Positions 831 through 63,500 of a stretch of DNA of 64,000 bases are shown here, in pieces. Below the pieces are notes generated by a model. It saw only the letters and a list, made by a program, of their open reading frames with translations. It ran no database searches and was not told where the DNA came from. The position numbers and the translations under genes were made by a program. The stretch is from Armatimonadetes bacterium DC (GTDB lineage: Bacteria > Armatimonadota > Fimbriimonadia > Fimbriimonadales > GBS-DC). The DNA lies in the NCBI GenBank assembly GCA_001442985.1, contig LDYB01000004.1, positions 13,063 through 77,062 on the forward strand, read 5' to 3'. Position 1 is the stretch's first letter. Each line of letters begins with the position of its first letter.

Positions 831-1742
831 TTAGGGTCTCCAGAGCGAGCGGGCTATGCCGAGATTTCTCAGCAGCCAGAGAATAGAGAGCGCTCGATAG
901 GCTTGATCGTAGTTCGGCGTGCGCGTTTCCGCCACATACACAACATCACCGGGCTGGAGTTCGATATTCTGACTCATGTCGCCCTTGTGCAGGAGCTTGA
1001 TCATATCCACCTGGATTTGCTCCTCTTTGCCCTCGCTATTTTTGCGTATCACATAGGTACGGCTGAGCGCGGCGCGCTCGGTTTCCCATGACGCCTGGCT
1101 CAGCGCGTCCAGCACGGTCAAACGGGGGCGCCATGTGTAAAGTCCAGGGCGCTTCACCTGCCCGCCCACGAAGTAGCGATTCTGGGTCTCTTCGGGAATG
1201 AAGATGGTGTCGCCATCTTGTAGAGGGATATTGAGACTCAGGTCTCCCTCCTCGTAGAGCCGGCGCAGGTTGAGAGGAATTTTGGTGCCATCGATACGCT
1301 GGAGCCAGGAGTCTTCCATGCGGGCGCGTTCCACCACAGGACCCCCTGCATAGGAAAGTGCATCCAGCAGGCGGTCGCCGTCCTTAAATTCGTAAACGCC
1401 AGGGCGATTCACGAATCCCAGCACGGAAACACGCGGGCGATGGTACTGCTCGATGTTCACCACGACACGCGCTCGGGTCAGATATTGCATGCGCACCAGT
1501 TCGCGCGCGATGCGGTCTGCAAGTTCATCGGGGGTCAGCCCCTGGGCTTGAAGTGTGCCTATCGGAGAAAACGAGATCGTGCCATCACGGCGCACAACAA
1601 TCCCGCGCTGAAACAGTTCCGGGAAGCCATCCACACTAATAGTAATCACATCGTCCGCTTGCAGGCGGTAGGGACCTTCGGTTCGCTGGGCGTGCAGCCA
1701 ACAGACCAGCGCCATGCTCATCCCAATCAAGAACCAGCGCAT
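831..1742 (-). CDS. Polysaccharide export protein (Wza-like, Poly_export + SLBB domains)
   Basis: ORF 831..2015 trimmed to ATG 1742 (MRWFLIGMSMALVCWLHAQ signal peptide, GGGAGGG SD). Motifs: YRLQADDVITISV, DGTISFSPIGTLQAQGLTPDELA, VSVLGFVNRPGVYEF, LLDALSYAGG, YFVGGQVKRPGLY. Confidence 0.85.
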   Translation of the reverse strand: MRWFLIGMSMALVCWLHAQRTEGPYRLQADDVITISVDGFPELFQRGIVVRRDGTISFSPIGTLQAQGLTPDELADRIARELVRMQYLTRARVVVNIEQYHRPRVSVLGFVNRPGVYEFKDGDRLLDALSYAGGPVVERARMEDSWLQRIDGTKIPLNLRRLYEEGDLSLNIPLQDGDTIFIPEETQNRYFVGGQVKRPGLYTWRPRLTVLDALSQASWETERAALSRTYVIRKNSEGKEEQIQVDMIKLLHKGDMSQNIELQPGDVVYVAETRTPNYDQAYRALSILWLLRNLGIARSLWRP

Positions 1743-1781: not shown

Positions 1782-1797
1782 AGCAACTTTCGTGCCA
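1782..1797 (-). promoter_or_regulatory. sigma54 (RpoN) -24/-12 promoter element facing the wza-like operon
   Basis: Reverse complement reads TGGCACGaaagTTGCT. All specified positions of the TGGCACG-N4-TTGCW consensus match, with GG-N10-GC spacing. Predicted TSS near 1771, giving a 29-nt leader with an SD before ATG 1742. Confidence 0.7.
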
Positions 1798-1862
1798 TGC
1801 GTTCCACTCCTTGTTGGATTATCGGCATCTCCTCTCGATTTCTCAAGGTATCCGCCATGCAG

Positions 1863-1881: not shown

Positions 1882-1897
1882 TGGCACGGAAGTTGCT
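1882..1897 (+). promoter_or_regulatory. sigma54 (RpoN) -24/-12 promoter element facing the secreted propeller protein/HDOD operon
   Basis: TGGCACGgaagTTGCT, a perfect consensus with GG-N10-GC spacing. It is 17/18 identical to the divergent copy at 1782-1797. Predicted TSS near 1908. Confidence 0.7.
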
Positions 1898-2080
1898 GTG
1901 GCTTTTTGCGAGGGCGCCGTGCCTGCAGCACGAGGCGGAATTGGACGCTTAACAGCGAAGGGTTAGGGCTTGGCGAGCTGTGTTCGTGCTGCCTATCGGC
2001 GCCCTCTCTTCCCAACTCTCGCGATTTTACCTGCCCGCCTCCCGCTTACCGTATGGAACAAGCCGAGTGGGAGGCGAACA

Positions 2081-3829
2081 ATGAAGCGACTTTGGGGAGT
2101 TTCTCTGGGAATTGCGCTGGTCTGTACCCTTTACGGCGATCCGAACGCTTTACGCACGCCCACAGGCTACCTCTGGGCTGGAACCACCTTTACGCTCCGG
2201 GCGCACGCCACAGCAGGCAGCCTGACGCAGAGTTCCGCGCCTGCACAGGTGCGCGTGGGGCAAATCATCCACTGGCAAACGATGGTGGACTCCCCCGCTG
2301 GCGCCAGCATTCCCATCGGGAGCGCCGTGTTCAGCACGCGCGTGGTCAATATGGGCAACGGCTATGATCGGCTTAGTTTCGAAGTGTGGCAGGACGAACT
2401 GACAGACCCCCTGTGGACGGTGCGTCTCTATGAGAACCCCCGCGGCGACGGACAGATTTCAAGCAGCACGCTGATTGCCACCCCAGGAAGCGGAGGGCAA
2501 GGACGCCTGATAGCGCCCGGGGAGACGATTCAGTACCTTGTGCAGGCAACTCCGCCCGGCAGCTCCGTACCAACCGACGGCGTGTGGGTGGCGGCGACCT
2601 ATAATACCTCCGTGCCTTCCCGGACCAACCGCCTGCTGGGCGAATTTGTGGCGGGGGTTCGTCGCTCTGCAGGGGTGCATAGTCGGGCTACCAGTAACCT
2701 GAACTACCTGATTGCCGTAGCGCCCGTGTTAGCCGATTCAAGACTTTTCTGGATCGGGACTGACCCGGCAACTAACCGGAGCCTTCTCTATTACACCCCC
2801 AATCCCATCACGGTGCAGGGTAGCACGCTTTCTTCTAACCGGCAGACCTATGGGCGCACACTTTCCAACTTCGCGCCCTCGGGTTTCAGTGTGGTACTGG
2901 GCACGGGCTGGTTCACGGGCAACGGCTCCCAGCTGGTGCGGATTGACCTCGCCCGGGTGCTTGCGAATAATACTTCTGCAGACCCCTATCAGGTCGTTTC
3001 GTTGCCCAACACGCAGCCGCGTCTGGATCTGACCCCCGCAATTTACAACGGGCGACTTTATGTCGCAGGAGCCGATAACCGTCTGCATGTGATTCGCGAC
3101 AACGGCACATGGGCAGCCCAGAGCGCACGCCCCTCCACCACCGTGGGGAACTTCTCCTGCTCGCCGCTCGTGGCGGGTTCCTCGCTGTATATTGGCACGG
3201 ATCGGGGCTACATTCTGCGCTTTGACCTGACCAACGGCGGAATCGCCCAGTCGCGCCAGGTGGCGAGCAACCTCCCCATTCGGAGTCTGGCGCTGACGCG
3301 CGATGGGCGTCTGCTGCTGGCGCGGGCAGGCGACAACCGGGTGTTGGGGCTGCTGGTTGGCAACCTGACAACCTATTACTACTACAATACCCCCCAGCCC
3401 ATCGTTTCGCCCCTCACCTATCACTGGGATACCGACACGGTGTTGTTTATGACTCAGGATGGCTTTCTGTACGCGCTGAATGCGCAAACGGGCATGCCGC
3501 GTCCGCATTATCCCCAGCAAATCTGGAGCGGGCAGCCCCTCCAGCGCGCGACGCTGGCAGTGATGCTTCAGGAAGGACGCAAGGCTTACTATGTGTACGC
3601 CTTAGCCCAGCAAGCCACAGCAGGGGGGGGCACTCAGGGGCGGTTCGCAATGATTACGCTGGTCAACCCCTATAACCAATACGAGGTTTCCGAGACCTCG
3701 ATGTATACTGGCTCGGATTACCTGCCGTGGATCAGTTTTACGGGCAACCAGAGCTACAGCTTCTGCCTGATTGCGGCGCGAACCCATGCAACACCGCAGG
3801 GGGTTGTCGCAGCGATTAACATCCGATAA
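2081..3829 (+). CDS. Secreted protein, paralog A: N-terminal Ig-like (DUF11/CARDB-like) region plus C-terminal PQQ-like beta-propeller repeats
   Basis: ORF 1970..3829 trimmed to ATG 2081 (MKRLWGVSLGIALVCTLYG signal peptide, GGGAGG SD). VVNMGNGYDRL and APGETIQYLV resemble DUF11-type Ig domains. Repeated LYVAGADNRLHVI / LYIGTDRGYILRFD / DGFLYALNAQTG blades. Full-length paralog at 27631..29325. Confidence 0.8.
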   Translation: MKRLWGVSLGIALVCTLYGDPNALRTPTGYLWAGTTFTLRAHATAGSLTQSSAPAQVRVGQIIHWQTMVDSPAGASIPIGSAVFSTRVVNMGNGYDRLSFEVWQDELTDPLWTVRLYENPRGDGQISSSTLIATPGSGGQGRLIAPGETIQYLVQATPPGSSVPTDGVWVAATYNTSVPSRTNRLLGEFVAGVRRSAGVHSRATSNLNYLIAVAPVLADSRLFWIGTDPATNRSLLYYTPNPITVQGSTLSSNRQTYGRTLSNFAPSGFSVVLGTGWFTGNGSQLVRIDLARVLANNTSADPYQVVSLPNTQPRLDLTPAIYNGRLYVAGADNRLHVIRDNGTWAAQSARPSTTVGNFSCSPLVAGSSLYIGTDRGYILRFDLTNGGIAQSRQVASNLPIRSLALTRDGRLLLARAGDNRVLGLLVGNLTTYYYYNTPQPIVSPLTYHWDTDTVLFMTQDGFLYALNAQTGMPRPHYPQQIWSGQPLQRATLAVMLQEGRKAYYVYALAQQATAGGGTQGRFAMITLVNPYNQYEVSETSMYTGSDYLPWISFTGNQSYSFCLIAARTHATPQGVVAAINIR

Positions 3830-3849: not shown

Positions 3850-4698
3850 ATGGAACTCAGTGCATTGAGCATTCGTGTGGCGCGGACCCCGGGCTTGGGG
3901 ATGTTGCCCCAGATTACCAGCCAGATTCTGCGCATGGTGGACAATCCGAACGCTTCGCCGCGTCAAATCGGTGCGCTGATCGAGCGCGACCCCGGTCTGG
4001 CGTCCAAGCTGCTGAAGACCGCCAACAGCGCGTATTACGGCTCGCCGGGCAAGATTAAGACCGTCTCGCAAGCCATTTCGGTGATGGGGCTGTCGGCGGT
4101 GCGCTCGGTGGTGGTGAGTCAGGCATATCAGCAGATGACGGCGGTCCGGGGCGCTTCCAAACGGTTTGATCGGCTGGCGTTCTGGCAACACTCGCTGGCG
4201 ACTGCCAGCGCCGCGCGGGTGCTGGCGAAGCTCAAAGGCTACCGCGACCCCGAAGAAGCCTTTCTGGCGGGACTGATGCACGATGCGGGGCGGCTGGTGA
4301 TGGATCGGTTCCTGCCCAACGAGTTTGATCAGATTTGCACGCTGGCGCTGGAGCGCGTCATCCCGCTGATTGAAGCCGAACGCGAGGTGCTGGGCTATAC
4401 CCATGTGGAAATTGGCGACATGCTGGCAGAGCAGTGGAACCTGCCCGATGGCTTGCGCACTGCCATCCGCATGCACCATCAGCCGAAGGGCACCTTCGCG
4501 GAATGCCCGCTGGGCTATCTGGTCTACGCTGCCAATATCGTGGCGCATCAAGTGGGGTTCGCGCTACAGCCGCCCGTCCTCTACAGTCTGGAAGAGCAGC
4601 CCAAGCAGGAGCTGGGGATCCCGGACGCGCAGCTGGAGGGGCTGAAGCAGGTCGTCCTGCAGGAGGTCATGCGCACCCAGGAAGTGCTGAAAATTTAG
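3850..4698 (+). CDS. HDOD domain protein (stand-alone signalling/regulatory module)
   Basis: LPQITSQILRMVDNPNASPRQIGALIERDPGLASKLLKTANSAYYG, AISVMG, LMHDAG, GYTHVEIGDMLAEQWNLP, IRMHH. GGAGG SD. Begins 20 nt after the upstream gene. Confidence 0.85.
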   Translation: MELSALSIRVARTPGLGMLPQITSQILRMVDNPNASPRQIGALIERDPGLASKLLKTANSAYYGSPGKIKTVSQAISVMGLSAVRSVVVSQAYQQMTAVRGASKRFDRLAFWQHSLATASAARVLAKLKGYRDPEEAFLAGLMHDAGRLVMDRFLPNEFDQICTLALERVIPLIEAEREVLGYTHVEIGDMLAEQWNLPDGLRTAIRMHHQPKGTFAECPLGYLVYAANIVAHQVGFALQPPVLYSLEEQPKQELGIPDAQLEGLKQVVLQEVMRTQEVLKI

Positions 4699-4994
4699 CC
4701 CAGCAGGAAACTGCTCACCAGAACCCCCAGGCTCCAGAGGCTCACATACAGCCCGATTGCCAGTCGGGTCCAGCGAGCCACAAACTGCGGGTTGTGCTTG
4801 CGATACCACTCGGCAAACCCAATTGCAAGCACAACCGTCGCGCCTTTCACTGCAAAAAAGGCGAACCAGCCAAACCCCAGCACCCAGTTCATAATCGGGT
4901 TGAACTCGGTCGCCAAGCCGTTCGTGATGAGCCAGTAGGTGCTGAGCGCGTCCGCAAGGCAAATCAAGAGAAGTGCCCAACTCTCCCGTGTCAT
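4695..4994 (-). CDS. Small integral membrane protein (DUF5658-like, E-x-NP motif)
   Basis: ORF 4695..5105 trimmed to ATG 4994 (MTRESWALLLICLADALSTYWLITNGLATEFNPIMNW...). Three predicted TM helices. Paralog at 51551..52012. Confidence 0.7.
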   Translation of the reverse strand: MTRESWALLLICLADALSTYWLITNGLATEFNPIMNWVLGFGWFAFFAVKGATVVLAIGFAEWYRKHNPQFVARWTRLAIGLYVSLWSLGVLVSSFLLG

Positions 4995-5010
4995 AGCAAG
5001 GGGGCGAATC

Positions 5011-5026
5011 AGCAACTTTCGTGCCA
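5011..5026 (-). promoter_or_regulatory. sigma54 (RpoN) -24/-12 promoter element upstream of the DUF5658-like gene
   Basis: Reverse complement reads TGGCACGaaagTTGCT, identical over 16 nt to the 1782-1797 copy. It lies in the 50-nt gap between the nnr stop and ATG 4994. Predicted TSS near 5000, only about 6 nt before the ATG. Confidence 0.65.
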
Positions 5027-5044
5027 GACAGGCTGGAGAGATTA

Positions 5045-6577
5045 TCAGTTTTGCGCAAGGGCGCGGCTGAGTTCCTCGGCGGTGTAGGGGCGCGCCCGCT
5101 GGCATGCCAGTCGTTGTCCTGCCTGAGCGTGCAGGTAGGCGCCCGCGACGGCTGCGCGTTCAGGGGTCAGCCCCTGCGCCAGAAGACCCGCAATCGCGCC
5201 TGTCAGCACATCGCCCGACCCGCCCGTGCCCAGCGACGGCTCCGCGAAGGGGTTCACCCACAGGCGCGCCTCCGCCGCAATCAGCGTGTAGGCGCCTTTG
5301 AGCAGGCACACCGCGCGGTAGCGTTCGGCAATTGCCTGCGCCGAGCCAAAACGCTCCCTTTGAATCTGGGCGGTTTCTAACCCCAGCAGGCGCGCCGCCT
5401 CGCCGGGATGCGGCGTCAAAACCGTTTTGCTGGAGAGAGGCGTCTCCGAACCCAGGCGCGCCAGCCAGTTCAAGCCATCAGCGTCTATCACCAGCGGGCG
5501 ATCCCGCTCGCTCCAGAGTGCCAGCAGTTCCAGAACCGCTCTGCCGACCGATTCGGCTTGCCCCAGCCCTGGTCCGAGCGCCAGCACGGAGTACCGCTCC
5601 AGTCGTTCGGCGAGCCAGCGCACGCCCTCCAGCGTGAGCGCGCCCGTGCCTTCATCCGGCAGGGGAAGCGTCATCAACTCGGGGTAGAAGCTGGCGACCT
5701 GCGGCTGGACACGGCTGGGGCACGCCACGGTGGCAAGCCCTGCCCCCACGCGCAGAGCCGACATCGCGCTCAGCGCGGGCGCGCCCACCATCCCCACCGA
5801 ACCGCCCACCACCAGCACATGACCCCGATGCCCTTTATGCGCGTCAGGCGCCCAGCAGGGCAGCCATGCACGCACCTGTGGCTCGCTCACAATCCAGCCC
5901 GCAGGTTCCACTTCCGTCACGCGTGAGGGCGGGATGCCTATCGGCACGGCGACCCACTGCCCCACATGGCTCGGACCCGCGTTCTGGAAAAAGCCGCGCT
6001 TGGGAAACGCCATCGTCACGGTATAGGTGGCGCGCACCGCAGCGCCCAGCGCTTCGCCCGTCTCGCCGTTCAGCCCGGAGGGGATATCAATCGCCACAAT
6101 CGGGCGCCCCGAAGCGTTCATCGCCTCAATCAGCGTCCTGAGGGGGGGCTGAATGGCGCCGCGTGTGCCTGTACCCAGCAAGGCGTCCACCAGCAGGTCT
6201 TCGTCCCGAAAGAGGTCGGGGTGTGGAGTGTCGGGGATGGCGAGTGCGGGCACTTTCAACGCCTGCAGGATGCGCCACTGAACGGCAGGGTCGCCCTGAA
6301 ACTGGCTGGGGTCGCAAGTGAGCCATAAATGCACGCGCGCGCCCGCTTCATGCAGGTAGCGCGCCACCACCATCCCGTCGCCGCCGTTATTGCCTTTGCC
6401 CACCACCACCGCGACGGAGCGCTTCTCTATCGGCGCGAACCATTCGCAAATCTTCTGGAACACGCCGAACCCTGCGCGTTCCATTAAAATCAGCGACGGG
6501 ATGCCGTCCTGCTCGATGGCGAGCTGATCCAGCCGCCGCATCGCCTCCACGCCTAACACCGGCATGCTGGGGTACAT
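5045..6577 (-). CDS. nnr: Bifunctional NAD(P)H-hydrate repair enzyme (epimerase / ADP-dependent dehydratase)
   Basis: YjeF_N motif GKGNNGGDG and C-terminal kinase-like GGSGDVLTG. Start uncertain: ATG 6577, ATG 6565 or TTG 6592. Confidence 0.9.
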   Translation of the reverse strand: MYPSMPVLGVEAMRRLDQLAIEQDGIPSLILMERAGFGVFQKICEWFAPIEKRSVAVVVGKGNNGGDGMVVARYLHEAGARVHLWLTCDPSQFQGDPAVQWRILQALKVPALAIPDTPHPDLFRDEDLLVDALLGTGTRGAIQPPLRTLIEAMNASGRPIVAIDIPSGLNGETGEALGAAVRATYTVTMAFPKRGFFQNAGPSHVGQWVAVPIGIPPSRVTEVEPAGWIVSEPQVRAWLPCWAPDAHKGHRGHVLVVGGSVGMVGAPALSAMSALRVGAGLATVACPSRVQPQVASFYPELMTLPLPDEGTGALTLEGVRWLAERLERYSVLALGPGLGQAESVGRAVLELLALWSERDRPLVIDADGLNWLARLGSETPLSSKTVLTPHPGEAARLLGLETAQIQRERFGSAQAIAERYRAVCLLKGAYTLIAAEARLWVNPFAEPSLGTGGSGDVLTGAIAGLLAQGLTPERAAVAGAYLHAQAGQRLACQRARPYTAEELSRALAQN

Positions 6578-6595
6578 AGGCAATTCACACAACCT

Positions 6596-22613: not shown

Positions 22614-22616
22614 TAA

Positions 22617-24095
<1,479 letters not shown>

Positions 24096-24157: not shown

Positions 24158-25954
24158 ATGCAATCGCATATCCGAAACTTCTGTATTATCGCGCATGTAG
24201 ACCACGGCAAATCCACGCTGGCAGACCGCCTGCTGGAGTTCACAGGCGCGATTGCCCGCGGCACCCCGGTAGAGCAGGTGCTGGACACGATGGACCTGGA
24301 GCGCGAGCGCGGAATCACGATTAAAATGACCGCCGTGCGCCTTTCCTACACTGCCCGCGACGGGAAAACCTATCAGCTCAACCTGATTGACACACCGGGG
24401 CATGTGGACTTCACCTACGAAGTCTCGCGCAGTCTGGCAGCGTGCGAGGGCGCCATTCTGGTGGTGGACGCCGTGCAGGGCGTGGAAGCGCAAACGATTG
24501 CCAACACGAACCTTGCCTACAATCAGGGGCTGACAATTGTGCCCGTGATTAACAAGATCGATTTGCCCTCTGCAGACCCCGAGCGGGTCAAAGAGGAGAT
24601 GGAACACGCCCTGTTGATAGACCCCAGCGAGGTCATCTTAGCCAGCGCGAAAGAGGGTATCGGGATTGAGGAGATTCTGGAGGCAATCGTGCAGCGCATC
24701 CCCCCGCCGAAAGGCGACCCCAACGCGCCGCTTCGGGCGCTGGTCTACGACTCCCACTACGACCCCTATGTGGGCGTGGTGGCGTATGTACGGGTGGTGG
24801 ATGGCAGGGTGCAACCGGGCGACCGCATCATGTTTATGTCCAACGGCAAGGTGTTCGAAGTGGCGCAGGTGGGCTACTTCACCCCCCAGCTGCGCCCTGC
24901 CGAGCGCCTGGACACGGGCGAGGTGGGCTATATTACTGCTTCCATCAAGTCGGTGAAAGACGCGCAGGTGGGCGACACGATTACTTCCGCAGACCGCCCC
25001 GCAAAAGAGCCACTGCCCGGTTTCCGTAAGGTCAAGCCGATGGTGTTCTGCGGCTTGTACCCGGTGGAAGGCGATAAATACCCCGACCTGCGCGACGCGC
25101 TGGAAAAGCTCAGCCTTAATGACGCCGCCATCACCTTCGAGCCAGAAAACAGTGCCGCGCTTGGCTTCGGGTTCCGATGCGGCTTTCTGGGGCTGTTGCA
25201 TATGGAAATTGTGCAGGAACGCCTGGAGCGCGAGTTCGGGCTGGAGCTGATTGCCACCGCCCCCAGCGTCGCCTATCGCGTGACGCTGGAGGACGGAACC
25301 CAGCTGGAAATAGACAACCCCACCCACTGGCCCAATCCGGGCACCATCGAGAAGGTGGAGGAACCCGTAGTCTTCGCCACGGTGATGGTTCCCAACGACT
25401 ATGTGGGCGCGGTGATGGAGCTCTGCATGGGGCGGCGCGGCGAGTTTGTGAAAATGGAGTACCCCACGCCCCAGCGCGTGATTCTGTATTATCGCCTGCC
25501 CCTCAGCGAGATTCTGCTGGACTTTTATGACCAGCTCAAGACCCGCACGCGCGGCTACGCCTCGTTTGACTATGAGCCGGCAGGCTATCGCGAAGTGGAC
25601 GCCGTGAAAATCGATGTGCTGATTAACGGCGACCCTGTGGACGCGCTGAGCTTTATCGCCCCGCGCGAGCGCGCCTACGCCCGCGCGAAGGTGCTGGTGG
25701 AACGCCTCAAAGAGGTCATCCCGCGCCAGCAGTTTGAGGTGCGCATTCAGGCGGCAATTGGCTCGCGCGTGATTGCCTCCGAGACCATCAAGCCGTTCCG
25801 CAAGAATGTGATTGCCAAGTGTTATGGGGGCGATATCACGCGCAAGCGCAAGCTGCTGGAGCGCCAGAAAGAGGGCAAGAAGCGCATGAAGCAGGTCGGC
25901 ACGGTGGAAGTGCCTCAAGAGGCGTTTCTGAGCGTGCTGAAGGTCAACGATTAA
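24158..25954 (+). CDS. lepA: Elongation factor 4
   Basis: ORF trimmed to [26 protein letters not shown]. Full-length LepA. Confidence 0.95.
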
Positions 25955-27474: not shown

Positions 27475-27508
27475 CTTCAAGACGGCAGGAAATTTTAATG
27501 GGATGGGG

Positions 27509-27630: not shown

Positions 27631-29325
27631 ATGAGACAGTGGGCACTGGCAGGATGGCTCGCGTGCGCAACCGTGCTTTGGGCGCAGCAGGTACCGCGCA
27701 CGCCAGGCGGTGAATTGTGGGCAGGTACGACCCTTCAACTTCGCGCGGCGGTGGTGAACAGTTCGGGAAGCGCCGTTGCGCTCTCCAATCCCGCCGAAGT
27801 ACGGGTCGGGCAAGTCGTGCGCTGGCGGGTAGAGTACGAGTCGCTTCCCCACGGAACGACCGACCGCGATGCATGGTTTACGCTTCTGGTGCAAAATCGG
27901 GGCAACGGTTACGACACCTTGCTCCCGAAACTCAACACCCTGGAAGCGCCCGACGCGACCCCATGGCAAATTACGCTCTATGAGCAGCTCACGCCAGACC
28001 AGAGTTTCGAGGGGGCAACTCTGGTGAGTGAGGCGCTGGCTCCTGTGGCGCCGGGGGAACAACGCCGGCTCTTCTTACGCGCCCGCGCGCCCAGCGATCG
28101 CAACACCGACGGTGCCTTCCTCTTTTTGAACGCACGCCCGCTGATGGACGCGAGCCTGCGCTTCGAACGCAACTTTGTAGCAGGTGTGGAAGCCACTCGT
28201 GGCGTCGCAACTCAAGCCACAACATGGAGCAGCTACACCCTGGTTGCAGAACCCGCTCTCATAGAAGGCAGGCTCTGGTGGGTAGCGAACAACGGAACGG
28301 ACACCCGGGTTTTCTTCACGCCCCAGCCTCTCACGACAACGGGTACCTTTACGAATAACACCCAAGGGGGCGCCAAGTTAATCGGGATTACGCCCGGTGG
28401 GGCAGGGGTCTTCACGAATGAATGGCTGTTCCTGACCGCATCTAACGGCGCGGTGGGAGCATTCCCGCTGAACCTCCTGAGCCAGAATGGGTTGCTTGCG
28501 CCCACATGGCTCAACCTGCCCCTGCCTGTTCGCACCGATGTGGCGCCTGTTTGGGATGGCGTGCTGGTTTTCTTTGCAGACATCACGGAGCAGGTGATTG
28601 TGTTTGACCCTGTCAGGGGGCTGGCAACCTCCCTGCTTCGCCCCACCGATAGCCCGATCGTTGCGCTCTATACGCTTCCAGAGCGGACTGTGGTCGTTGC
28701 CCGGGCGAATGGCTTGTTTGAGGTGATTCAGAACGGCGTGCGCGTGCGGAGTAATGTGCGCTTACCGAACGCGGGCACGACCCCTCTGCTGGGTGCGGCT
28801 TATGATGCCCGCCGGGGTAATTTGATTGTTTCGGCAGGCACGCGCATTGGTTGCTACAACTTCCGTGCAAATCAGTGGCTCTGGGTGCTGAACACAGGAA
28901 CCGCGCTGATAGGAGCGCCCGTCTACGACTTCGCTACCGACGCATGCTATGTGCTGGACAGCACAGGACAGCTCTGGGCGCTGGATTCGGGAGGAGGGGC
29001 GGTACGCCCGCTCTACCCGCAGCGGTGCTTCAATCGCCTCCTCAGCAAAGCCACCCTGACCGCACTGGCACGCCAGGACCGCAAAGTAAGCTATGTGTAT
29101 GTGCTGGCGCAGTTCTCAGACGGTACTGTGGAGACCCGCCTGATTACCGCCGTGAACCCCTTCAACCGCTTTGTGAACACCACTATTCCTGCTGGCGCGG
29201 TGATAGGGAGCCGCTGGCTGGTTACGGGGGATGGCGACAGCGATTTTCTCATCGCGTGGTGCTGGCGCGGCGTGATTATTAACGGCACAGAGCGTGGCGC
29301 ATTCTATGCCTTTCGCCCCCGATAA
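27631..29325 (+). CDS. Secreted protein, paralog B: Ig-like (DUF11/CARDB-like) region plus beta-propeller repeats
   Basis: ORF trimmed to ATG 27631 (MRQWALAGWLACATVLWAQQ signal). Collinear with 2081..3829 through the blocks RTPxGxLWAGTT, VRVGQ, NxGNGYD, LYE, APGE, FVAGV, YVYxLAQ, VNPxN. Confidence 0.8.
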   Translation: MRQWALAGWLACATVLWAQQVPRTPGGELWAGTTLQLRAAVVNSSGSAVALSNPAEVRVGQVVRWRVEYESLPHGTTDRDAWFTLLVQNRGNGYDTLLPKLNTLEAPDATPWQITLYEQLTPDQSFEGATLVSEALAPVAPGEQRRLFLRARAPSDRNTDGAFLFLNARPLMDASLRFERNFVAGVEATRGVATQATTWSSYTLVAEPALIEGRLWWVANNGTDTRVFFTPQPLTTTGTFTNNTQGGAKLIGITPGGAGVFTNEWLFLTASNGAVGAFPLNLLSQNGLLAPTWLNLPLPVRTDVAPVWDGVLVFFADITEQVIVFDPVRGLATSLLRPTDSPIVALYTLPERTVVVARANGLFEVIQNGVRVRSNVRLPNAGTTPLLGAAYDARRGNLIVSAGTRIGCYNFRANQWLWVLNTGTALIGAPVYDFATDACYVLDSTGQLWALDSGGGAVRPLYPQRCFNRLLSKATLTALARQDRKVSYVYVLAQFSDGTVETRLITAVNPFNRFVNTTIPAGAVIGSRWLVTGDGDSDFLIAWCWRGVIINGTERGAFYAFRPR

Positions 29326-36710: not shown

Positions 36711-36784
<74 letters not shown>

Positions 36785-51500: not shown

Positions 51501-54500
51501 CGGTGAAGTTTGCCGAGAATTTGTGGAACACTCCCTCTGGAGGCAAGCGTATGGAAGCGCGGCGGCGGTACCTGAGCAACGAGAGCTGGGCAATCATTCT
51601 CATCTGTGTTGCCGACCTGTTGATTACGCTGGTGCTGATCGACAAGGGGCTGGCAGAAGAGGGCAACCCCCTGATGCGGTTCTATCTGGGGCACGGGGTC
51701 TGGGCGTTCGTGCTGGCGAAAAGCATTATGGTGGCGGCGCCCGTTGTCATTATCGAGTGGGGACTGCGCCATCGCCCGCGCACCGTCGCAACCCTGGCAC
51801 GAGCGGGTATCGCAGGCTATCTGGGCATTTACGCCCTGATGTTCCTCACAATTAATGTGCCCGCGATGCGCACCGCGCAGGAGCCAGACTGGGCGGAGTT
51901 CCCGCCCATCGACAGGGAGCTGTTGCGGCTGGAACGCGAGGGCTATCTCCCGGGACCTGAGATGCCTGAAGATGTACGGGCACCAAAAGCGCCGCATGCG
52001 CCCAGTCGGTAATCAATCGCTCTCGTTTCGCAGGCGCATCAGGTAAGTTTCCAGTAAAATCGCGGCGGCGACGGCATCCACCACCTGCTTGCGCTTCTCG
52101 CGACGCACCTCCATCGTTAGCAGGCGTCGTTCCGCCTCCTGCGTGCTGAACCGCTCGTCCACAATTTCGATGGGCACACGCAGTCGCGTGCGGAGGGCAT
52201 CAATGAACCGTTCCACCTGTTCTGCACGCTCGCTTTTTGCGCCCCACAGGTGGATTGGCATCCCCACCACCACGCGCTCCGCGCCCGATTCGCGAAGCCA
52301 CGCCACAACCCTTTCAATATCGTTCGGCAACACTGTTGCGGGCAACGCCACGCCCACCTCGGTCTGGGCGACCGCCACGCCAATCCGCTTCTCGCCGTAG
52401 TCCAGCGCCACGACCTTCATGCGTTTTCCCAGTTCAGCACCACCTTACCCGCCGTGCCGGAGGCGGTCAGCTCGAACGCCTGCTCGTACTCGTGCCATGC
52501 CAGCTCGTGCGTGATGGCGGGGCGCACATCCAGCCGTCCCGACACCAGCAGGCTCTGCATCGTCTCCCATGTTTGATAGAGTCGCCTGCCCAGAATGGCG
52601 TGAATCTCCACCGCTTTGAAAATCAGTGCGTTCAGGTCTACGGGCACAGGCTCGGCGAATAGCCCCAGCAGGCTAATGCGCCCGCCCGGACGAATCGCTT
52701 CGGTCAGCAGGGCGATTGCCGACGGGTGTCCCGACATCTCCAGCCCGACATCCACGCCTGCGCCGTCGGTGGCTTTGCGGATGGCAGTTAGCACATCGTC
52801 GTGCGTGGGGTCAAACACGGCGTCGGCGCCCATGCGCATCGCCAGCTCGCGCCGATAGGGGCGCACTTCGGTGGCGAAAACCTGGCGCGCCCCACACGCC
52901 CGCGCCACCGCGATACTGAACAGCCCAATCGCCCCACAGCCCGTAATCAGCACCGACCTGCCTGCAATCTCGCCCGAAAGCACGGTATGCACCGCGTTCC
53001 CCAGCGGGTCCTGCACCGTCGCCACTTCGGGGGGGATTCGGGGGTCGGTCTTCTGGGCGTTCGCAGCAGGGATGGCAATCAGCGGCGCGAAGCACCCATC
53101 GGTATCCACACCCAGAATCCGTGTGTTCAGGCAGACATGCGCCTGTCCCTCGCGACACGGTTTACAGCGCCCACATACGATGTGGCTCTCGCCTGCCACA
53201 AAATCGCCCACCTGCAAGCCTTCCACACCGTCGCCGACCGCCACCACATGCCCGCAAAACTCATGCCCGATAATCAGCGGCGGCTTCAAGCGCGACTGCG
53301 CCCATGAATCCCAGCGATAGATGTGCAGGTCGGTCCCACACAGGGAGGTTCGGCTCACTTTAATCAGCACCTCGCCGTAGCGAGGGGTTGGCTCTGGCAC
53401 CTCACACAGTTCCAGCCCGACGGCGGGCTGCGTTTTGCAGATGGCTTTCATCCCTGCCTAAGTATACCCCCTGTCAGCGGGTACAATTTCAAACACCTTA
53501 TGGACTACGATGTGATTGTTGTGGGGACGGGACACGCCGGATGTGAGGCAGCCTTAGCCGCCGCGCGCATGGGCTGTCGCACGCTTGCCGTCACGCTGAA
53601 TCTCGCGCGAACCGCCCATATGCCCTGCAACTGCAGTATCGGCGGACCCGCGAAAGGGCATCTCGTGCGCGAAATTGACGCGCTCGGCGGGCAAATGGGC
53701 ATCAACACCGACCTCACACTCACCCACATTCGCTTTGTGGGCACAGGCAAGGGACCTGCCGTGCGCACCCTCCGCGCCCATGCCGATAAAGACCTCTATC
53801 CCGCCCAGATGCTCGCCACTTTGCAGGCGCAACCGAACCTCACTCTGCTGGAGGGAAGTGTTGAGTCGCTGCTGGTGCGCGACGAGACTTGCTACGGCGT
53901 GCGCCTTGCCGATGGCACCGAGATTACGGCTCGCGCTGTGGTGCTGACCACGGGCACCTTCCTGAACGGACTGTGCCATATCGGCGAGCGCAAAATTCAA
54001 TCTGCCCGCTTCGGCGACCCGCCCGCCACAGGCTTGACCGAATGTTTGCGTCAGCTGGGGTTCCGTATCGGGCGGTTCAAGACGGGCACCACACCCCGCA
54101 TCGACAAAAAGAGCGTGGATTTCAGCCAGTGGCAGGAGGTGCCTTCCGAGCCGTGCCCGCCCTTCTCGTATATGCATGACAGCCTCAATCCGCCGCGCCC
54201 CCTGCTGCCCTGCTGGCAGACCTACACCAACGAGCGCACGCACGCCATCATCCGGGAGAACCTGCACCGCTCCGCGATGTATGGGGGGCATATCGTGGGC
54301 GTGGGACCCCGATTCTGCCCCAGTATAGAAGATAAAATCGTGCGCTTCCCCGACAAGGACCGCCACCCCGTCTATCTGGAGCAGGAATACTGGGATAAGG
54401 ACGACCTCTATGTGCAGGGCATGTCCACCAGCCTGCCCGAAGAGGTGCAGCTGGCATTCCTGCGCACGCTACCGGGGCTGGAAGAGGTGGTGATGATTCG

Positions 54501-57500: not shown

Positions 57501-60500
57501 CCGCATTTCGCGGAACAAGGTTTTACCTGCCTACCGTAAAAAAAACCGTTCTATCCGTTGCGCGCAACACATTCCGAACCACTATCCCCATCGGGTATAG
57601 TTCATGCCCGCAACCACTTCAACCTATAACGAGGGAGCCAAACGCATGGAAGCCATTATCGCCCTGATTACGCTCAGTGCGCTGGAGATTGTGCTGGGGA
57701 TTGACAACATCATCTTCATCTCCATCCTGTCGGACAAGTTGCCCGAACATCAGCGGGCGCGGGCACGCTTCATTGGATTGGGTCTGGCGTTGATCATGCG
57801 CATTCTGCTTCTGCTCTCCATCACATGGGTGCTGGGACTGCAGAAGCCACTGTTTGAGCTATTCGGCAACGAGTTTTCGGGCAGAGACCTGATTCTGATT
57901 CTGGGCGGGCTGTTTCTGATGGGCAAGGCGACCTACGAGATTCATCACAAGGTGGAGATGGCAGACCAGCCCCATCCCATCCCGAAACGAATCAGCTTTG
58001 GGTGGGCAGTCGTGCAGATTGTGCTGATTGATCTTGTGTTTTCGGTGGACTCGGTGCTGACGGCGATTGGCATGGTGCGCGAGCTGTGGGTGATGGTTAC
58101 GGCAGTGATTGTTTCCATTGGGTTCATGCTGGCGTTCGCGGGTTCAGTAAGCAAACTCATCGACGCGCATCCCTCGCTGAAAGTGCTGGCGCTGGCGTTT
58201 CTGGTGCTGATTGGGTTCAACCTGCTGGGCGAGGGCTTCGGCTACCATATTCCCAAGGGCTACACTTATTTCGCGATGGCGTTCTCGGTGGCGGTGGAGG
58301 TCATCAACATTCGGATTGGGGCACGCAAAAAGGCGTAGGGCGTCTAAAAAGGTACAATCATATGGCGAGGGGCTGGGGAGATGATACCGATGCAGGAGCC
58401 GACGATACAGACGCCCGAAGCAGAGCGCATGCCGAAAGAACGCATCGAAGCGCTGATGCGCGAGGCGGTGCATCTGTACGAGCAGAACCGCCTTGACGAG
58501 GCGCTGCTGGCGTGCGAGGGGATTCTGGCGTTAGACCCGCGCCATGTGCATGCGCTCTCGTTGAAAGGGCTGATTCACGAGCGCAGGGGACAGATTGCGG
58601 ATGCGATTCATGCATATGAGCGCGTGCTGGAGATAGACCCCCTGAGTGTCTCCGAGCGCGCGCGGCTGGAAGCGTTGCGTGCGGGTGGGCAGCGCAAGCG
58701 CGTTGCGGCTCGTCCGCTCTGGCTGGAAGCGATGCCCGCCGTACTGGCGTTTCTGGGCGCAGGGCTGGTGCTGATGCTTGGCTTTGTGTGGCTCATTCGC
58801 GCGACGACTCCGCCCCCGGCACCCCAGCCTGCGAGTTCCCCTGCCACGACCTTCGCGCCCGCGCCTGCCTCGTCCGCCCCGGTGCAGAACCCCAGTCCGA
58901 TACCGCCGCCCACAGTCTCGCGTCCCGAGCCAGCGGAAGGCGCGGTGCCCCCAGTGATAGTAGACCCCAGCAAGGTGGCGCTGACGCCGAGCAATCCGCC
59001 CGCGCCCCCTCTCACAGGCGCCCTGCCGAACCTGCCCGCGCCCCAGAACAAAGCCGAAAAAGAGTCGCAGCCCGAATCTTCCAGAACCTCCGAATCGCCG
59101 AAACCCCAGAGCGAAGTGATGCCCGATGTGAAGGTGGAGGAGCGCGACCCCGGCGTGTACGAGATTCAGGTTCACCGTGTGGGTTCGGGCGAGGCTAATT
59201 CTTCGCGCGAAGACCCCCTTGCTGCCGCACGCCGTTACCAGATGGCGGGCAACTATCGCGAAGCCATCGCGGCGTACCAGCGCGCCCTGCCGAACGCGCC
59301 CTCGCCCGGCTATGTGCATCAGCAGATTGCGACCTGCTACCTGCGCCTGAACGAGAAAGCGAACGCCCGCACCCACTTCCAGCAAGCCATTCGCGAGTAT
59401 GAGCGCCAGATCAGCGCAGGGCGCGATGTGGAAAGCGCACGGCAGGGCATCGCCGCCTGCCAGGACGGGCTGAAACTATGCGAGGAGTAAGTGCGCTTCT
59501 GCTGGGCTTTCTCCTTTGCTGGCAGAGCCTGAGCGCCCAGCAGGCGCCCCTGATGCTGGTCTATCAGGAGCGTGTGCCCGCCTCTAACCCGGAGGAAGAC
59601 CCCAACCTGCCCATTCAGGCGCCGCTCACCGCGTTTTTGAACGAGATTCGCAAGGTGCGTGTGGAGTGGTATCAGCCCACTCATCCCGCGGTGCAGCAGG
59701 TCTTGCAGGCGCGCGGACTTGCCCCCAGCCGCGCCGAACAGCCTGATACCAGCCTGCTGATGCAGGTCGCGCGAGCGATGGGAGCGACTTACATGCTCAC
59801 CGTGCGTTGCACGAACGGCAAGAAAGGGCAGATTCAGTACGCCTGCACGCTGTGGCAGCTCGGGCGGCGCGCCCCGCTCTGGCAAAGTGAAGGCATCCAG
59901 CAGTTCACTGACGAAACCTATCAGAACGCGCTGATGAGTCTTTTGCGCACGCTGGCGATGCGCATGAATCAGGAAGCGTTTGCCGATTTGCCCACGCTTC
60001 CTGAAAAGCCCCAGCCGCCGCCCACCCCCCAAAGTCAGCCGCCGTCCCTTCCTGCCGACACCCCCCAGAAGCGACTGGAGCAACTGATTCGGGAGGGGCG
60101 CCTGCGCGAAGCGATTGCCCCCCTGCGCACGCTTATCAATCAGGAACCCACCAACCTCGCCTATCGCCTGCAACTGATCCAGATTTACCGCCAGCTCGGC
60201 CTGGAGGGTCTGGCAGCACAGGCTGTTGACGACGCACTTGCGCTTTTCCCGGACGACGAAACGCTCCTGAATCTCTGGGCGCGCTCGCTGCAGGAGAGTC
60301 ATGACCCCCCGCAGGTGATAGAGGCGCTCCAGCACAAACTGCGCGAGAACCCCGCCTCCAGCACCCTGCGCCTGCACCTTTTCGATGCGCTGTTAGCCGC
60401 AGGACGCACCGACGAGGCAGAAACGGTGCTGACCCCTTTCCAGAACACGGACCTGCCCGAAGTGCGCTGGCGCGAGTACCTGCTCCAGGGCGCAAAACGA

Positions 60501-63500
60501 CGCTACGCGATTACAGGCGAACCCGTGCAGGGCTTCGGGGAGCAAGCGGGTCTGTGGTGGACGATTGTCTCGGGCGCGTTCACCGATTTCGCAAACGAGA
60601 TTTTAGACCTCCGCCGCCTCGCCAGCGACCCCGCCCCCAACTGGAAACAACTCCGTGAACGGGGCGAGAAACTGGTACAACAGATTCTGGAGTTCGGGCA
60701 GTGGGTGGGGCGGATGCAACCCGACGCCACCCTCCAGAAACCTTACCAGCATGTACGGTTCGGGGCGCAGTTGCTGGGGCAGTCGGCGCAACATATGGCA
60801 CGCTACTTGCTGTCGCGCAATAACGAGGAGGCGGAACAGGCAGCCACGCTCCGCATCGAGGCGTTGCGCGAGCTGGAATCTGCCCAGCCGAAACCTGAGT
60901 GATGATCGAACTGGGGTTGCTAATGGGTCTGGCTGTGCTGGGGGGCGCCGCCATCACATGGTGGAGCCGACGCGCCTGCCCCTTCTGTCCACGCCCCCCT
61001 GTGATGGCGCATCAGCGCGTGCAGATGGAGGTGGAGGGGCAGACCTACACCGTGCTGTTGCATACAATAACGGAAAGCCATCTTGTGCTGACGCCGCCGG
61101 TGCGCAACGGATTGCCCCTGCGTTTTGAGACGGGCACGCGCGTGCGCCTGACGCTCACTGCGCCGGGCGGCGTGTATACAATGGAGAGCCAGTTCACCGG
61201 GTTCACGCGCGAAGGCGCCCACTCCTATCTGCTGATCGCGAACCCTTCCCGCTGGCAGGTGCATCAGCGACGTCGGCAACCGCGCGTCCTGCTCGCCGAC
61301 GAAGTGCCCCTCGAAGCGTGCGCCAACGGCAAGACCTTCATCGGCTGGGTGCAGGATGTGAGCGCAGGGGGCATGCGCCTGTTCGCCCCCGTGCCGCTCG
61401 CCGAAGGAACCCTGCTGCAGCTGGACATCCCGCCGGGTCTGAAGGGAGCGCTTTCGGAGGGCATCCGCACCGCGCAGGTTCGCGCCTGCAAGCGTACCCT
61501 GCACCGCCACGATTACCTCTTCTGTCTGCACCTCGCCTTCACCGATGGCTAACGCGCCCGACCTCTCGGTGATTATCGTCAACTACAACACGCGCGACCT
61601 GCTGCGGGAGTGTTTGCTGGCTCTGAGGCACTGCGCAGGGGTCTCTCTGGAGATCATCGTGGTGGACAACGCCTCCGCCGACGGCAGCGCAGAGATGGTG
61701 CGCACTGAGTTCCCGGAGGTCGTGCTGATTGCGAACGCCGAAAACAGGGGCTTTGGCGCGGGGTGTAATCAGGGATTGCGCGTGGCGCAGGGGCGTTATG
61801 CGCTGATTCTGAACGCCGATGCGCGCCCTCAGCAACACGCGCTCGCCCGACTCGTCGCATTTATGGACGCCCATCCCGAAGCCGCTGCCTGCGGGGGACA
61901 GCTCCGCTATCCCGACGGACGCATCCAGCCCTCGTGTGCAACGGACCTGACCCTCTGGGCGGTCTTCTGTGAGCAAACAATGCTGGAGAAGCTGTTCCCC
62001 AAAACGCGCCTGTTCGGCGGCTACTGGCGCACATGGTGGGACTTCAGCAGCACCATAGAGACCGAGCAGCTGATGGGCGCATGCCTGATGCTCCGCCGCC
62101 AGCCCGATGGAGCCTTTCCCGAATTTGACGAGGCGTACTTCCTCTACTGCGAGGACACCGACCTCTGCTATCGCCTGCGCAGAGCAGGGGGCAAGCTCTA
62201 TTATGTGCATGACGCGATTTTTGTGCATCATCTGGGGGCAAGCGGGGAGGGTCAGCGTGCCGAGATGGTGATTTATTACAATCGCGGCAAGGAGCGGTTC
62301 TTTCGCAAGTTTCATGGGGCGCTCCCTGCCGCGCTCTGTTTTCTGCTGAACCAGTTCGGTGCGCTCCTGCGCTGGCTGATCGGGTTCAGCCTGACAATCT
62401 TGACGCTGGGGCGCGTGGCGCGGTATCGCCGCTACGCCAGCATCTTCTGGCGCGTGTTCTGGCGACGCATGCCTAATGCCCATCAATAGACACAGGACGG
62501 TAGCCGCCCCGTGCCCGATAGTACAGGAACTGCGCCCCGAACAGCACCACCAGAATCGCAGGCAGGATGGCGACCACACGGAAGGTCATCGCCGCGCCCT
62601 CGCGCAGTGCCTGATCCAGCACCTTCACCTGTTCCTGTGCCGTCGGATCGCCGGCTTCTGCCTGCTGGCGCAATTCCGCAGCTTTTTCGGGGCTGTACCG
62701 TCCGTCCACCACCACAATCTGGCGCACTTCGGGCGTGAGATTACGGATGGTGTATTCGTCATAGATGCGCCCCATCGAGGGACCCGCGACGCCTGCGGCA
62801 ATCATGCCTGCCGCGCCCATCACCGCCAGCAGGAATTCGCCCCCACGCGGATAGCGCTCCGACACCACGCCCAGCATCGTGGGCCAGAAGTAGGCTTTGC
62901 CTATCCCGAAAATGGTCGCCGCCAGAAACGCCATCCCCGCCTCGAAGGCGTAGCTCAGCATGTACAGCCCCACCGCGGCGAACGCCGCGCAGATTGCCAG
63001 CAACCCGATTGGCGTGAACACCCGCGCGACAGGTCCCGCCACAAGGCGCAACACGAACATCAACCCCGAAGTGTACACCAGAAACAGAATCCCACGAATG
63101 CCCACCGTGTCGGTCAGCACGGAACCCACCCACTGGTCGGGTCCCAGCTCGGTGATGGCGGTCATACACATGCACAGAATCAGCAACAGCACGCCGGGGC
63201 GCAGAATCTGCATGAACATCTCGCCCATGCTGACTCCCGAAGCGGCGCGCTCGGTTGGTGGAAAATGTTCCGTCCAGATCATGGCGCCGTAAATCAACGC
63301 GGGCACGATAATCATGCCCAGTCGCACCTGCCACGGAGCGTTGAAGAATTGCGCCAGCGCGAAGGTTACCAGCCCGCCAATAATCAGCCCACCTGGCCAC
63401 CATGCGTGCAGCACATTCAGCTTGTGGGTTTTCTCGTTGGGATACATGGTGGCTGCCAGCGGGTTAATCACCGCCTCCACGGTTCCGTTCGCCAGTCCCA

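Follow-up and report, generated by a model that had tools for sequence, protein, structure and literature searches.

We analysed a 64,000-nucleotide stretch of DNA from Armatimonadetes bacterium DC, a member of the Fimbriimonadales (GenBank assembly GCA_001442985.1, contig LDYB01000004.1, positions 13,063 to 77,062 of the forward strand), which we call the window. Our subject is P3, a short element resembling a sigma-54 promoter that lies in the 50-nt gap between the stop codon of nnr (TGA, 5047..5045) and the start codon of a gene for a small DUF5658-family membrane protein (ATG, 4994..4992). A first-pass annotation, made by a model that saw only the letters and their open reading frames (ORFs), had read P3 as one of three clustered sigma-54 promoters and its target mRNA as almost leaderless. 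The features at the locus are:

5045-6592, reverse strand: nnr, encoding a bifunctional protein (YjeF_N and Carb_kinase), 50 nt upstream of the DUF5658 gene
5011..5026, reverse strand: P3, a -24/-12 element of sigma-54 type, TGGCACGAAAGTTGCT, with GG at 5025-5024 and GC at 5013-5012, recognised by its consensus match
4995..5000, reverse strand: predicted transcription start site (TSS) at ~5000 and 6-nt leader CUUGCU, with no Shine-Dalgarno (SD) sequence, placed by the standard spacing from -12 to +1
4695..4994, reverse strand: DUF5658 gene, 99 amino acids (aa), three transmembrane (TM) helices, the target of P3 (Pfam PF18902, E=3e-15)

P3 matches the sigma-54 consensus perfectly, with its GG and GC exactly 10 nt apart within TGGCAC-N5-TTGC[A/T]. 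As the first-pass annotation had stated, the element at 5026..5011 is the same, over 16 nt, as a reverse-strand copy at 1797..1782 (17 nt counting the next G); it differs at one base from a forward-strand copy at 1882..1897 (TGGCACGGAAGTTGCT). The annotation's further claim that no other perfect copy exists holds for the exact 16-mer but not for the consensus, to which a fourth perfect match, TGGCACGctacTTGCT, lies at 60796-60811 on the forward strand. TGGCAC-N5-TTGCT thus occurs four times in the 64-kb window, against 0.04 expected, and none of 100 dinucleotide shuffles reached four. All four copies point toward a downstream gene start; three are intergenic, 17-185 nt 5' of an ATG, while the fourth is embedded in coding sequence, ~90 nt before the next gene. 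Because identity between the copies ends at 17 nt, P3 is not part of a longer repeat. Among ~0.36 Mb of related DNA, matches with a TTGC or GTGC -12 element all precede DUF5658, wza, a propeller gene or PilZ, bar two sites in coding sequence, and TGGCAC matches with a looser CGC ending are located elsewhere.

We collected DUF5658 orthologue loci by exact-protein look-up, by a genome scan that started from the adjacent HDOD gene, and by a metagenome scan with a DUF5658 alignment, and obtained 57 records with 38 distinct upstream sequences and protein identities to the window protein down to ~55%. Every one of the 57 carries TGGC[A/G]C-N5-N[T/C]GCT upstream of the DUF5658 start codon. The motif bases T1, G2, G3, C4, C6, G14, C15 and T16 never change across the 38 distinct sequences. 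Of these sequences, 25 have A and 13 have G at position 5; T or G occupies position 12, and T, replaced by C in two, occupies position 13. The 5-nt spacer is variable (GAAAG, AGAAA, GCCAG, AAGAT, GCTGG, GGCGT among others), the sequence on either side changes freely, and in L009 and L010, our labels for two loci of a close relative, the flanks of the P3 equivalent have drifted around a retained core. A fixed GG and GC 10 nt apart in drifting surroundings is just the profile expected of a sigma-54 -24/-12 element. The sigma-54 reading of the first-pass annotation thereby gains support, since all 57 records keep the GG/GC core together with the adjoining T, C and T while spacer, flanks and context vary.

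These orthologues lie in at least eight different, unrelated gene neighbourhoods. Depending on the genome, the neighbours include nnr; a shikimate-dehydrogenase-like gene and dnaX; rplJ-rplL; a Dam-type methylase; peptidase M32, saccharopine-dehydrogenase-like and galactokinase genes; and ExoD and PIG-L. Since the neighbours differ from genome to genome, the motif travels with the DUF5658 gene, and since its offset from the ATG covers all three frames, it is not coding. No same-strand GGTAnAAT box, the lineage's candidate sigma-70 element described below, was seen to accompany the gene at the orthologue loci. Among more distant DUF5658 genes (<=41% identity), 2 of 14 have a relaxed version of the pattern upstream, neither of them like the orthologue element. 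Identical proteins and near-identical DNA occur in metagenome-assembled genomes and metagenome contigs labelled Fimbriimonadales or Armatimonadota, many of hot-spring type. Judged by these comparisons, the promoter and the DUF5658 gene appear to form a unit that has been kept together while changing genomic neighbourhoods across Fimbriimonadales.

The target of P3 had been described as a DUF5658-like protein with three TM segments, and this was borne out by the Pfam match and by three predicted helices. An AlphaFold2 model has three long helices (predicted local distance difference test score, pLDDT, 78), and a fold search with this model gave no significant match. The model suggests a small three-helix membrane protein. 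The orthologues begin alike, with M-x-[KR]-E-[ST]-W, in which E4 never changes and W6 hardly ever, and those with long leaders (L083, L089, L011 and others) have a good SD before the equivalent ATG. The conserved N-terminus and these SDs together identify ATG 4994 as the start codon; the annotation had chosen the right ATG, and P3 leaves too little room before it for a normal leader. Two other starts were considered and rejected. An N-terminal extension through P3 (ORF 4695..5105) is ruled out by the presence of the motif in three frames among the orthologues and by the overlap of the extension with nnr, and a start further downstream by the conservation of E4, W6 and L8 in the protein and by the SDs that precede the same ATG in the orthologues. 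The window also encodes a DUF5658 paralogue (51553-51855, forward strand; 42% identity) with an ordinary SD (GGAGG), divergent from a leaderless gene at 51472; no sigma-54 motif was seen upstream of this paralogue.

To predict the transcription start, we set the C of the GC (5012) as -12, which places +1 at ~5000. The resulting DUF5658 leader pairs with the anti-SD at a duplex energy of just -0.7 kcal/mol. The distance from the -12 C to the ATG is 17 nt in the window and ranges from 11 to 54 nt across the orthologues:

11 nt: L082, to the first ATG
12 nt: L108
12 or 15 nt: L109, which has adjacent in-frame ATGs
13 nt: L084, L088, L118 and L132
13-14 nt: the clade whose -24 element is TGGCGC
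15 nt: L087, to the first ATG
17 nt: the window, L009 and L010
20-28 nt: many loci
41 nt: L089
54 nt: L083/L105

The SD follows this distance. All 14 distinct sequences with at least 21 nt from GC to ATG, each of them with TGGCAC, have an SD that lies wholly downstream of the predicted +1, and TGGCAC sequences with 12-17 nt have none. This pattern lends indirect support both to the predicted start site and to a switch between minimal SD-led and leaderless-type initiation. By the same spacing the predicted leader is 0-4 nt long in L082, L084, L087, L088, L108, L109, L118 and L132, and 6 nt in the window. The DUF5658 mRNA would thus be nearly leaderless in the window and effectively leaderless in several relatives.

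Such an arrangement fits the wider habits of this lineage. Of the 17 boxes of the form GGTAnAAT in the window, 11 have the ATG of a long ORF 7-12 nt downstream, against a background rate of 3.3% (P=5e-13):

15014, 18738, 20258, 24142, 29329, 53480 and 56890, forward strand: GGTAnAAT boxes 7-12 nt before an ATG
56836, 51487, 44187 and 17491, reverse strand: GGTAnAAT boxes 7-12 nt before an ATG

The ORFs led by these boxes include lepA, mnmG, gltX, an ABC ATPase and a Tat-signal protein. Because the products of lepA, mnmG and gltX align with NCBIfam models from profile position 1-2, their start codons are real. The boxes predict leaderless sigma-70 transcripts for a large share of transcription units, with predicted starts at 24158, 53500 and 56821 among them. 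In a published survey, only 25% of Fimbriimonadia genes are SD-led, among the lowest values in Bacteria (PMC10783764). Taken together, the 11 boxes abutting ATGs and the scarcity of SD-led genes indicate, at the level of sequence, that promoters placed right at a start codon are routine in the lineage, and DUF5658 with its sigma-54 promoter appears to follow this habit. The first-pass annotation had called the combination of a sigma-54 promoter with an almost leaderless mRNA unusual; the near absence of a leader is better seen as the local form of a lineage-wide practice than as an oddity of DUF5658. A twelfth GGTAnAAT box, GGGGTATAAT, precedes a tRNA gene (36711-36781, forward strand), whose mature 5' end lies 10 nt after it.

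The remaining copies of the element, with the genes and sites around them, are:

831..1742, reverse strand: wza (Poly_export and SLBB domains, Pfam), first gene of its operon
1782..1797, reverse strand: P1, the sigma-54 element before wza, identical to P3, with +1 predicted at ~1771, a 29-nt leader and the SD GGGAGGGAG
1818..1846, reverse strand: sigma-70-like promoter TTGAGA-17-GATAAT just upstream of P1, a 10/12 sequence match, conserved in L009 and L011
1863..1870, reverse strand: GGTATAAT box between P1 and P2, facing wza, conserved in L009 and L011
1882..1897, forward strand: P2, sigma-54 element TGGCACGGAAGTTGCT, divergent from P1 and 84 nt apart from it, with +1 predicted at ~1908
1908..2080, forward strand: putative conserved leader of the P2 transcript, ~173 nt, from alignment and RNAalifold with three species only, a weak prediction
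2081..3829, forward strand: secreted beta-propeller-like protein, 582 aa, first gene after P2 (Pfam PQQ_2, 9e-9)
3850..4698, forward strand: HDOD protein, 282 aa (Pfam HDOD, 7e-61)
60796..60811, forward strand: P4, a candidate site, TGGCACGCTACTTGCT, that matches the sigma-54 consensus perfectly and lies within the 3'-terminal part of a tetratricopeptide repeat (TPR) gene (59478-60902), with +1 predicted at ~60822

P1 is conserved as TGGCACAAAAGTTGCT in L009, L010 and L011, the last representing a second close relative. The wza operon runs past the left edge of the window, where the gene tables of L091 and L092 list wzc, a priming sugar transferase, an epimerase, a UbiA-like protein, GtrA, the exosortase EpsH, and EpsI. 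This continuation corresponds to L091 10001-18006, and its UbiA protein is decaprenyl-phosphate phosphoribosyltransferase-like. In NCBIfam searches the product of L091 16334-17248 carries an exosortase signature of unclassified subtype, below the XrtA cutoff, and that of L091 17236-18006 matches EpsI_fam with 49.3 bits against a cutoff of 42.8. By gene content, the wza operon is an exosortase-type exopolysaccharide system in Armatimonadota. The sigma-70-like promoter and the GGTATAAT box may be extra tandem promoters of wza, or these conserved blocks may be activator sites.

P2 is conserved in L009 and L010 and reads CGGCACGGAAGTTGCT in L011. Equivalents of its leader, which is highly conserved, lie at 6059-6236 of L009 and 6058-6243 of L011, and RNAalifold, applied to the three species, predicts a 95-nt multibranch structure closed by GGGCGCCG/CGGCGCCC together with a hairpin that pairs CCUCCC with the SD GGGAGG; few compensatory changes accompany this fold. 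A comparison of the P1/P2 region and the whole window with Rfam gave no leader match and returned, elsewhere, only a thiamine pyrophosphate (TPP) riboswitch (22616-22725, forward strand, 77 bits) and the tRNA. The P2 leader may be an undescribed regulatory leader. The HDOD gene is probably co-transcribed from P2. It converges on the DUF5658 gene with a 4-nt overlap at 4695-4698, and no terminator was found between the two; transcripts from P2 and P3 would collide, with transcriptional interference or antisense effects as possible outcomes. The propeller gene has a paralogue (27634-29172, forward strand; 29% identity) with a GGTATAAT box upstream at 27507 and a ~120-nt leader, and no sigma-54 motif was seen for it.

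P4 lies ~90 nt before a PilZN-PilZ gene, whose start (ATG 60902) overlaps the stop codon of the TPR gene and which is followed by a GT2 glycosyltransferase gene. It is invariant in two related species (L153 and L154) and belongs to one of the best conserved parts of the TPR gene, 180 nt over which three-way identity is 90-93%, compared with ~80% in the background. With this fourth conserved site, the proposal that sigma-54 sites are confined to a 3.3-kb island does not stand. The idea that the three clustered promoters form one functional unit survived in part: synteny holds in three close species, the arrangement wza-propeller-HDOD-DUF5658 being found only in the window species and its two close relatives (L009/L010 and L011), but elsewhere DUF5658 and its promoter lie in the unrelated neighbourhoods described above. 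HDOD homologues (~79% identity) occur in other contexts. With a single exception, their loci have no strict TGGCAC-N5-TTGC match within 8 kb, and relaxing the pattern brings up only scattered sites in coding regions. DUF5658 lies near HDOD in just two further arrangements (L083/L105, and L087), with an unrelated outer-membrane-like gene between them. In these two other genera, a conserved gene of 555-562 aa (L083 6374-8041, L087 5379-7067) stands downstream of DUF5658 on the same strand and is followed by a convergent HDOD gene. Its product has no Pfam match, and its last residues, ...LKLGV[EQ]F, are of the kind usual in outer-membrane barrels. That this gene might be a propeller homologue was considered and ruled out, there being no similarity and the product being outer-membrane-barrel-like.

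The tight grouping in the window is lineage-specific and not a conserved unit. The envelope or biofilm theme suggested by the first-pass annotation is plausible, P1 heading the exosortase/EpsI operon and the fourth site preceding PilZ and a glycosyltransferase. On these comparisons, the targets of P1, P2 and P3 and the PilZ site would make up a small, dispersed sigma-54 regulon of cell-exterior and cyclic di-GMP (c-di-GMP)-related functions.

From the conserved motif we consider it likely that P3 is a sigma-54 (RpoN) -24/-12 promoter dedicated to the DUF5658 gene. The start-site position, translation mode and inducing signal that we infer for it combine into the following scheme. Sigma-54 RNA polymerase would form a closed complex on TGGCAC-N5-TTGCT, and an AAA+ enhancer-binding activator encoded outside the window, probably one responsive to envelope or biofilm cues, would open it. 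Transcription would start ~12 nt past the GC, near 5000, and yield an mRNA with a leader of ~4-6 nt and no SD. This mRNA would be translated by the 5'-end-dependent, leaderless-type route that many housekeeping genes of the lineage are predicted to use, with a small three-helix membrane protein as the output. The DUF5658 gene and the wza/exosortase and propeller-HDOD operons would all belong to one small dispersed sigma-54 regulon.

Several observations weigh against this scheme. Searched by tblastn, the window and ~0.36 Mb of other Fimbriimonadales sequence yielded neither rpoN nor a gene for a bacterial enhancer-binding protein (bEBP). For the window, the annotation had likewise reported no AAA+ enhancer-binding protein, and we agree: six-frame translations hold no GAFTGA motif, bEBP Walker A motif or RpoN box, and tblastn with E. 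coli NtrC and RpoN gave no hit. A database search with E. coli RpoN returned E. coli clusters only, and a 10-kb extension beyond the window on the wza side contains the exosortase operon and no regulator. The genome paper of Fimbriimonas ginsengisoli names rpoD, rpoE and fliA among 40 sigma genes and leaves rpoN unmentioned. Sigma-54, deduced from the cis-element, and its activator would be encoded in the genome. A k-mer search for an upstream activator site common to the promoters, a comparison that the first-pass annotation had proposed, found only the GGTATAAT boxes belonging to divergent genes.

Space for such a site is also short, some divergent intergenic regions measuring only ~48 nt. 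In the MRHKETW clade, the leftward leaderless gene contributes its -10 box to this length, 2-3 nt separate that box from the sigma-54 element, and a further 12-13 nt lead to the ATG, so that an enhancer would have to lie inside the neighbouring genes or the activator work without one. An upstream activator sequence, usually ~70-150 bp upstream, is not an absolute requirement, and enhancer-independent activators exist. The same clade (L110-L138, e.g. L119 2442-2494) mostly has TGGCGC rather than TGGCAC as its -24 element, and in its TGGCGC sequences the last 12-13 nt ahead of the ATG form a G-rich, SD-like tract (-6 to -10.6 kcal/mol), correctly spaced for an SD and upstream of the predicted +1. 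Sister sequences with TGGCAC have C-rich tracts and no SD. A second start within the motif, or a changed mode of expression, is possible in the TGGCGC sequences. Two further points against the scheme come from the window itself, where a 6-nt leader is not strictly leaderless and where nnr lies upstream on the same strand without a terminator, so that read-through transcripts are possible.

The SD-like tract of the TGGCGC clade is the main internal evidence for an alternative in which P3 is an operator or an element of the 5' untranslated region that happens to resemble the consensus, with transcription starting at or upstream of the motif, for example from a weak sigma-70 promoter, and a 30-40-nt leader that contains it. 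We regard this as unlikely. In its favour, beyond the tract and the reliance on the cis-element for the presence of rpoN, GTGCT variants are able to fold into a 5-bp hairpin (-6 to -7 kcal/mol), and the spacer GAAAG is more conserved than sigma-54 needs. The invariant positions, however, are exactly the sigma-54 core, and the unvarying T16 does not suit a palindromic operator, which would require C there. An RNA hairpin (GGCAC-N5-GUGCU) as the selected feature is rejected, there being no covariation and the inner pair being broken in 10 of 19 distinct motifs. Nor is there a conserved same-strand -10 box upstream, although the GGTAnAAT box of this lineage is very recognisable. Two regularities described above also speak for the sigma-54 promoter, namely the SD that begins just after the predicted +1 in the 14 long-spaced TGGCAC sequences and the recurrence of the same element, in the correct orientation, before wza, the propeller gene and PilZ.

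P3 might also be a genuine but minor sigma-54 site, with DUF5658 expressed mainly by read-through from nnr-etfAB and the short distance to the ATG functionally meaningless. The 50 nt between the genes, their shared strand and the lack of a detected terminator favour this, as does the fact that neither possible transcript in the window has an SD; a 6-nt leader is, from work in E. coli, suboptimal for strictly leaderless initiation. Yet the promoter is retained in every lineage, including those in which the upstream gene is divergent and no read-through is possible (L084, L088 and L119), so nnr read-through cannot explain its retention, and the drift around a kept core in L009/L010 points the same way. 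We think this account improbable. Far less credible still are chance matches or a dispersed repeat family unrelated to promoters, such as repetitive extragenic palindromes (REP-like) or miniature inverted-repeat transposable elements (MITE-like). Two copies identical over 17 nt do suggest a repeat, and the first-pass annotation had named this as an outcome that would undo its reading. It is contradicted by the four copies found against 0.04 expected, by the abrupt end of identity at 17 nt, by orthologues that keep only the consensus positions while the spacer changes, and by the tie of TTGC and GTGC matches in the 0.36 Mb to DUF5658, wza, propeller and PilZ genes, with the two coding exceptions.

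If P3 is a sigma-54 promoter of this kind, one promoter-gene pair would occur in nature with leader lengths spread over 0 to 43 nt. The predicted orthologue leaders of 0, 2, 4, 6, 10, 14, 30 and 43 nt, with an SD only once room exists, would amount to a natural experiment on the switch between SD-led and 5'-end-dependent initiation. Should the prediction hold, an all-or-none promoter would be fused to a start codon, within intergenic regions too short for a classical enhancer. DUF5658, a family of unknown function, would be assigned to a regulon with exopolysaccharide export and c-di-GMP-related genes, which gives a starting point for its function. More speculatively, and with considerable doubt, we suggest a small Fimbriimonadales sigma-54 regulon whose most conserved member is a private promoter-gene cassette for the three-helix membrane protein, with an activator-dependent promoter abutting the start codon, a leaderless or ultra-short-leader mRNA and an activator that needs no ordinary enhancer upstream. 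If so, sigma-54 transcription and leaderless translation would for the first time be documented as naturally coupled.

Sigma-54 promoters provide tightly controlled, enhancer-dependent transcription and normally have long upstream regions and ordinary leaders, and leaderless translation is best known from phyla without sigma-54; the lineage of the window would unite the two if the prediction is right. We know of no described sigma-54 biology in the phylum Armatimonadota. The sigma-54 consensus is reportedly mrNrYTGGCACG-N4-TTGCWNNw. Like canonical promoters of this class, P3 has the exact TGGCACG-N4-TTGCT core, is oriented toward its gene, is invariant in orthologues and has no activator in the window. 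Unlike them, it lies in many lineages with its -12 C only 11-17 nt from the start codon, which leaves no room for an SD leader, and the family has no common upstream activator site, some of its intergenic regions being ~48 nt long. Enhancer-independent bEBPs are known, among them FlgR of Helicobacter and Campylobacter and CtcC of Chlamydia. By analogy, an activator of that type would explain how a sigma-54 promoter can work without the room, or the conservation, for an upstream activator site; we offer this as a lead and not as a finding.

The closest functional parallel to the wza side of the proposed regulon lies in proteobacterial PEP-CTERM/EpsH (exosortase) systems with PrsK/PrsR/PrsT, which carry a sigma-54 cis-element (Haft et al. 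2006, PMC1569441). In both cases a sigma-54 motif accompanies an exopolysaccharide locus (Wza, Wzc, priming transferase, exosortase and EpsI) and the targets are scattered single genes. The differences are several. In the PEP-CTERM regulon, 71 +/- 38 nt, and never fewer than 23, separate the end of the sigma-54 motif from the start codon (PMC1569441), against 16 nt here and 10-13 nt in several relatives. DUF5658 ends in ...VSSFLLG and the propeller protein in ...AAINIR, neither with a PEP-CTERM signal. The PrsR site there lies ~63 nt upstream of the sigma-54 motif, whereas no upstream 'motif 1' was found here, and PrsK, PrsR and PrsT were not found in the window or in the related loci searched. 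The exosortase here, too, falls below the XrtA cutoff, and the known system is described in Proteobacteria.

For the position of P3 relative to its start codon, the nearest comparison is with leaderless genes of Deinococcus-Thermus, in which a -10 box abuts the ORF (PMC12340547), and likewise of Actinobacteria. As in those groups, the promoter stands directly before the ATG and there is no SD, an arrangement that is frequent in the window for sigma-70-type promoters. The promoters there are of sigma-70 type, in contrast to P3, and the window copy of P3 would keep a ~6-nt leader. In a non-exhaustive search of the TSS-mapping literature, we found no description of a sigma-54-driven leaderless mRNA.

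The regulatory logic resembles that of E. coli pspG, which reportedly stands alone, codes for a small integral membrane protein and has a sigma-54 promoter of its own on which PspF acts in trans. DUF5658 is likewise a small multi-helix membrane protein with an apparently private sigma-54 promoter and no activator at its locus. The two proteins have no sequence or fold relationship, and pspG has PspF and integration host factor (IHF) sites and an ordinary SD leader. As an analogy, pspG is nevertheless a plausible model for DUF5658 as an envelope-stress effector. Set beside these systems, P3 is a known kind of element in an unusually compact architecture, and in an unstudied phylum.

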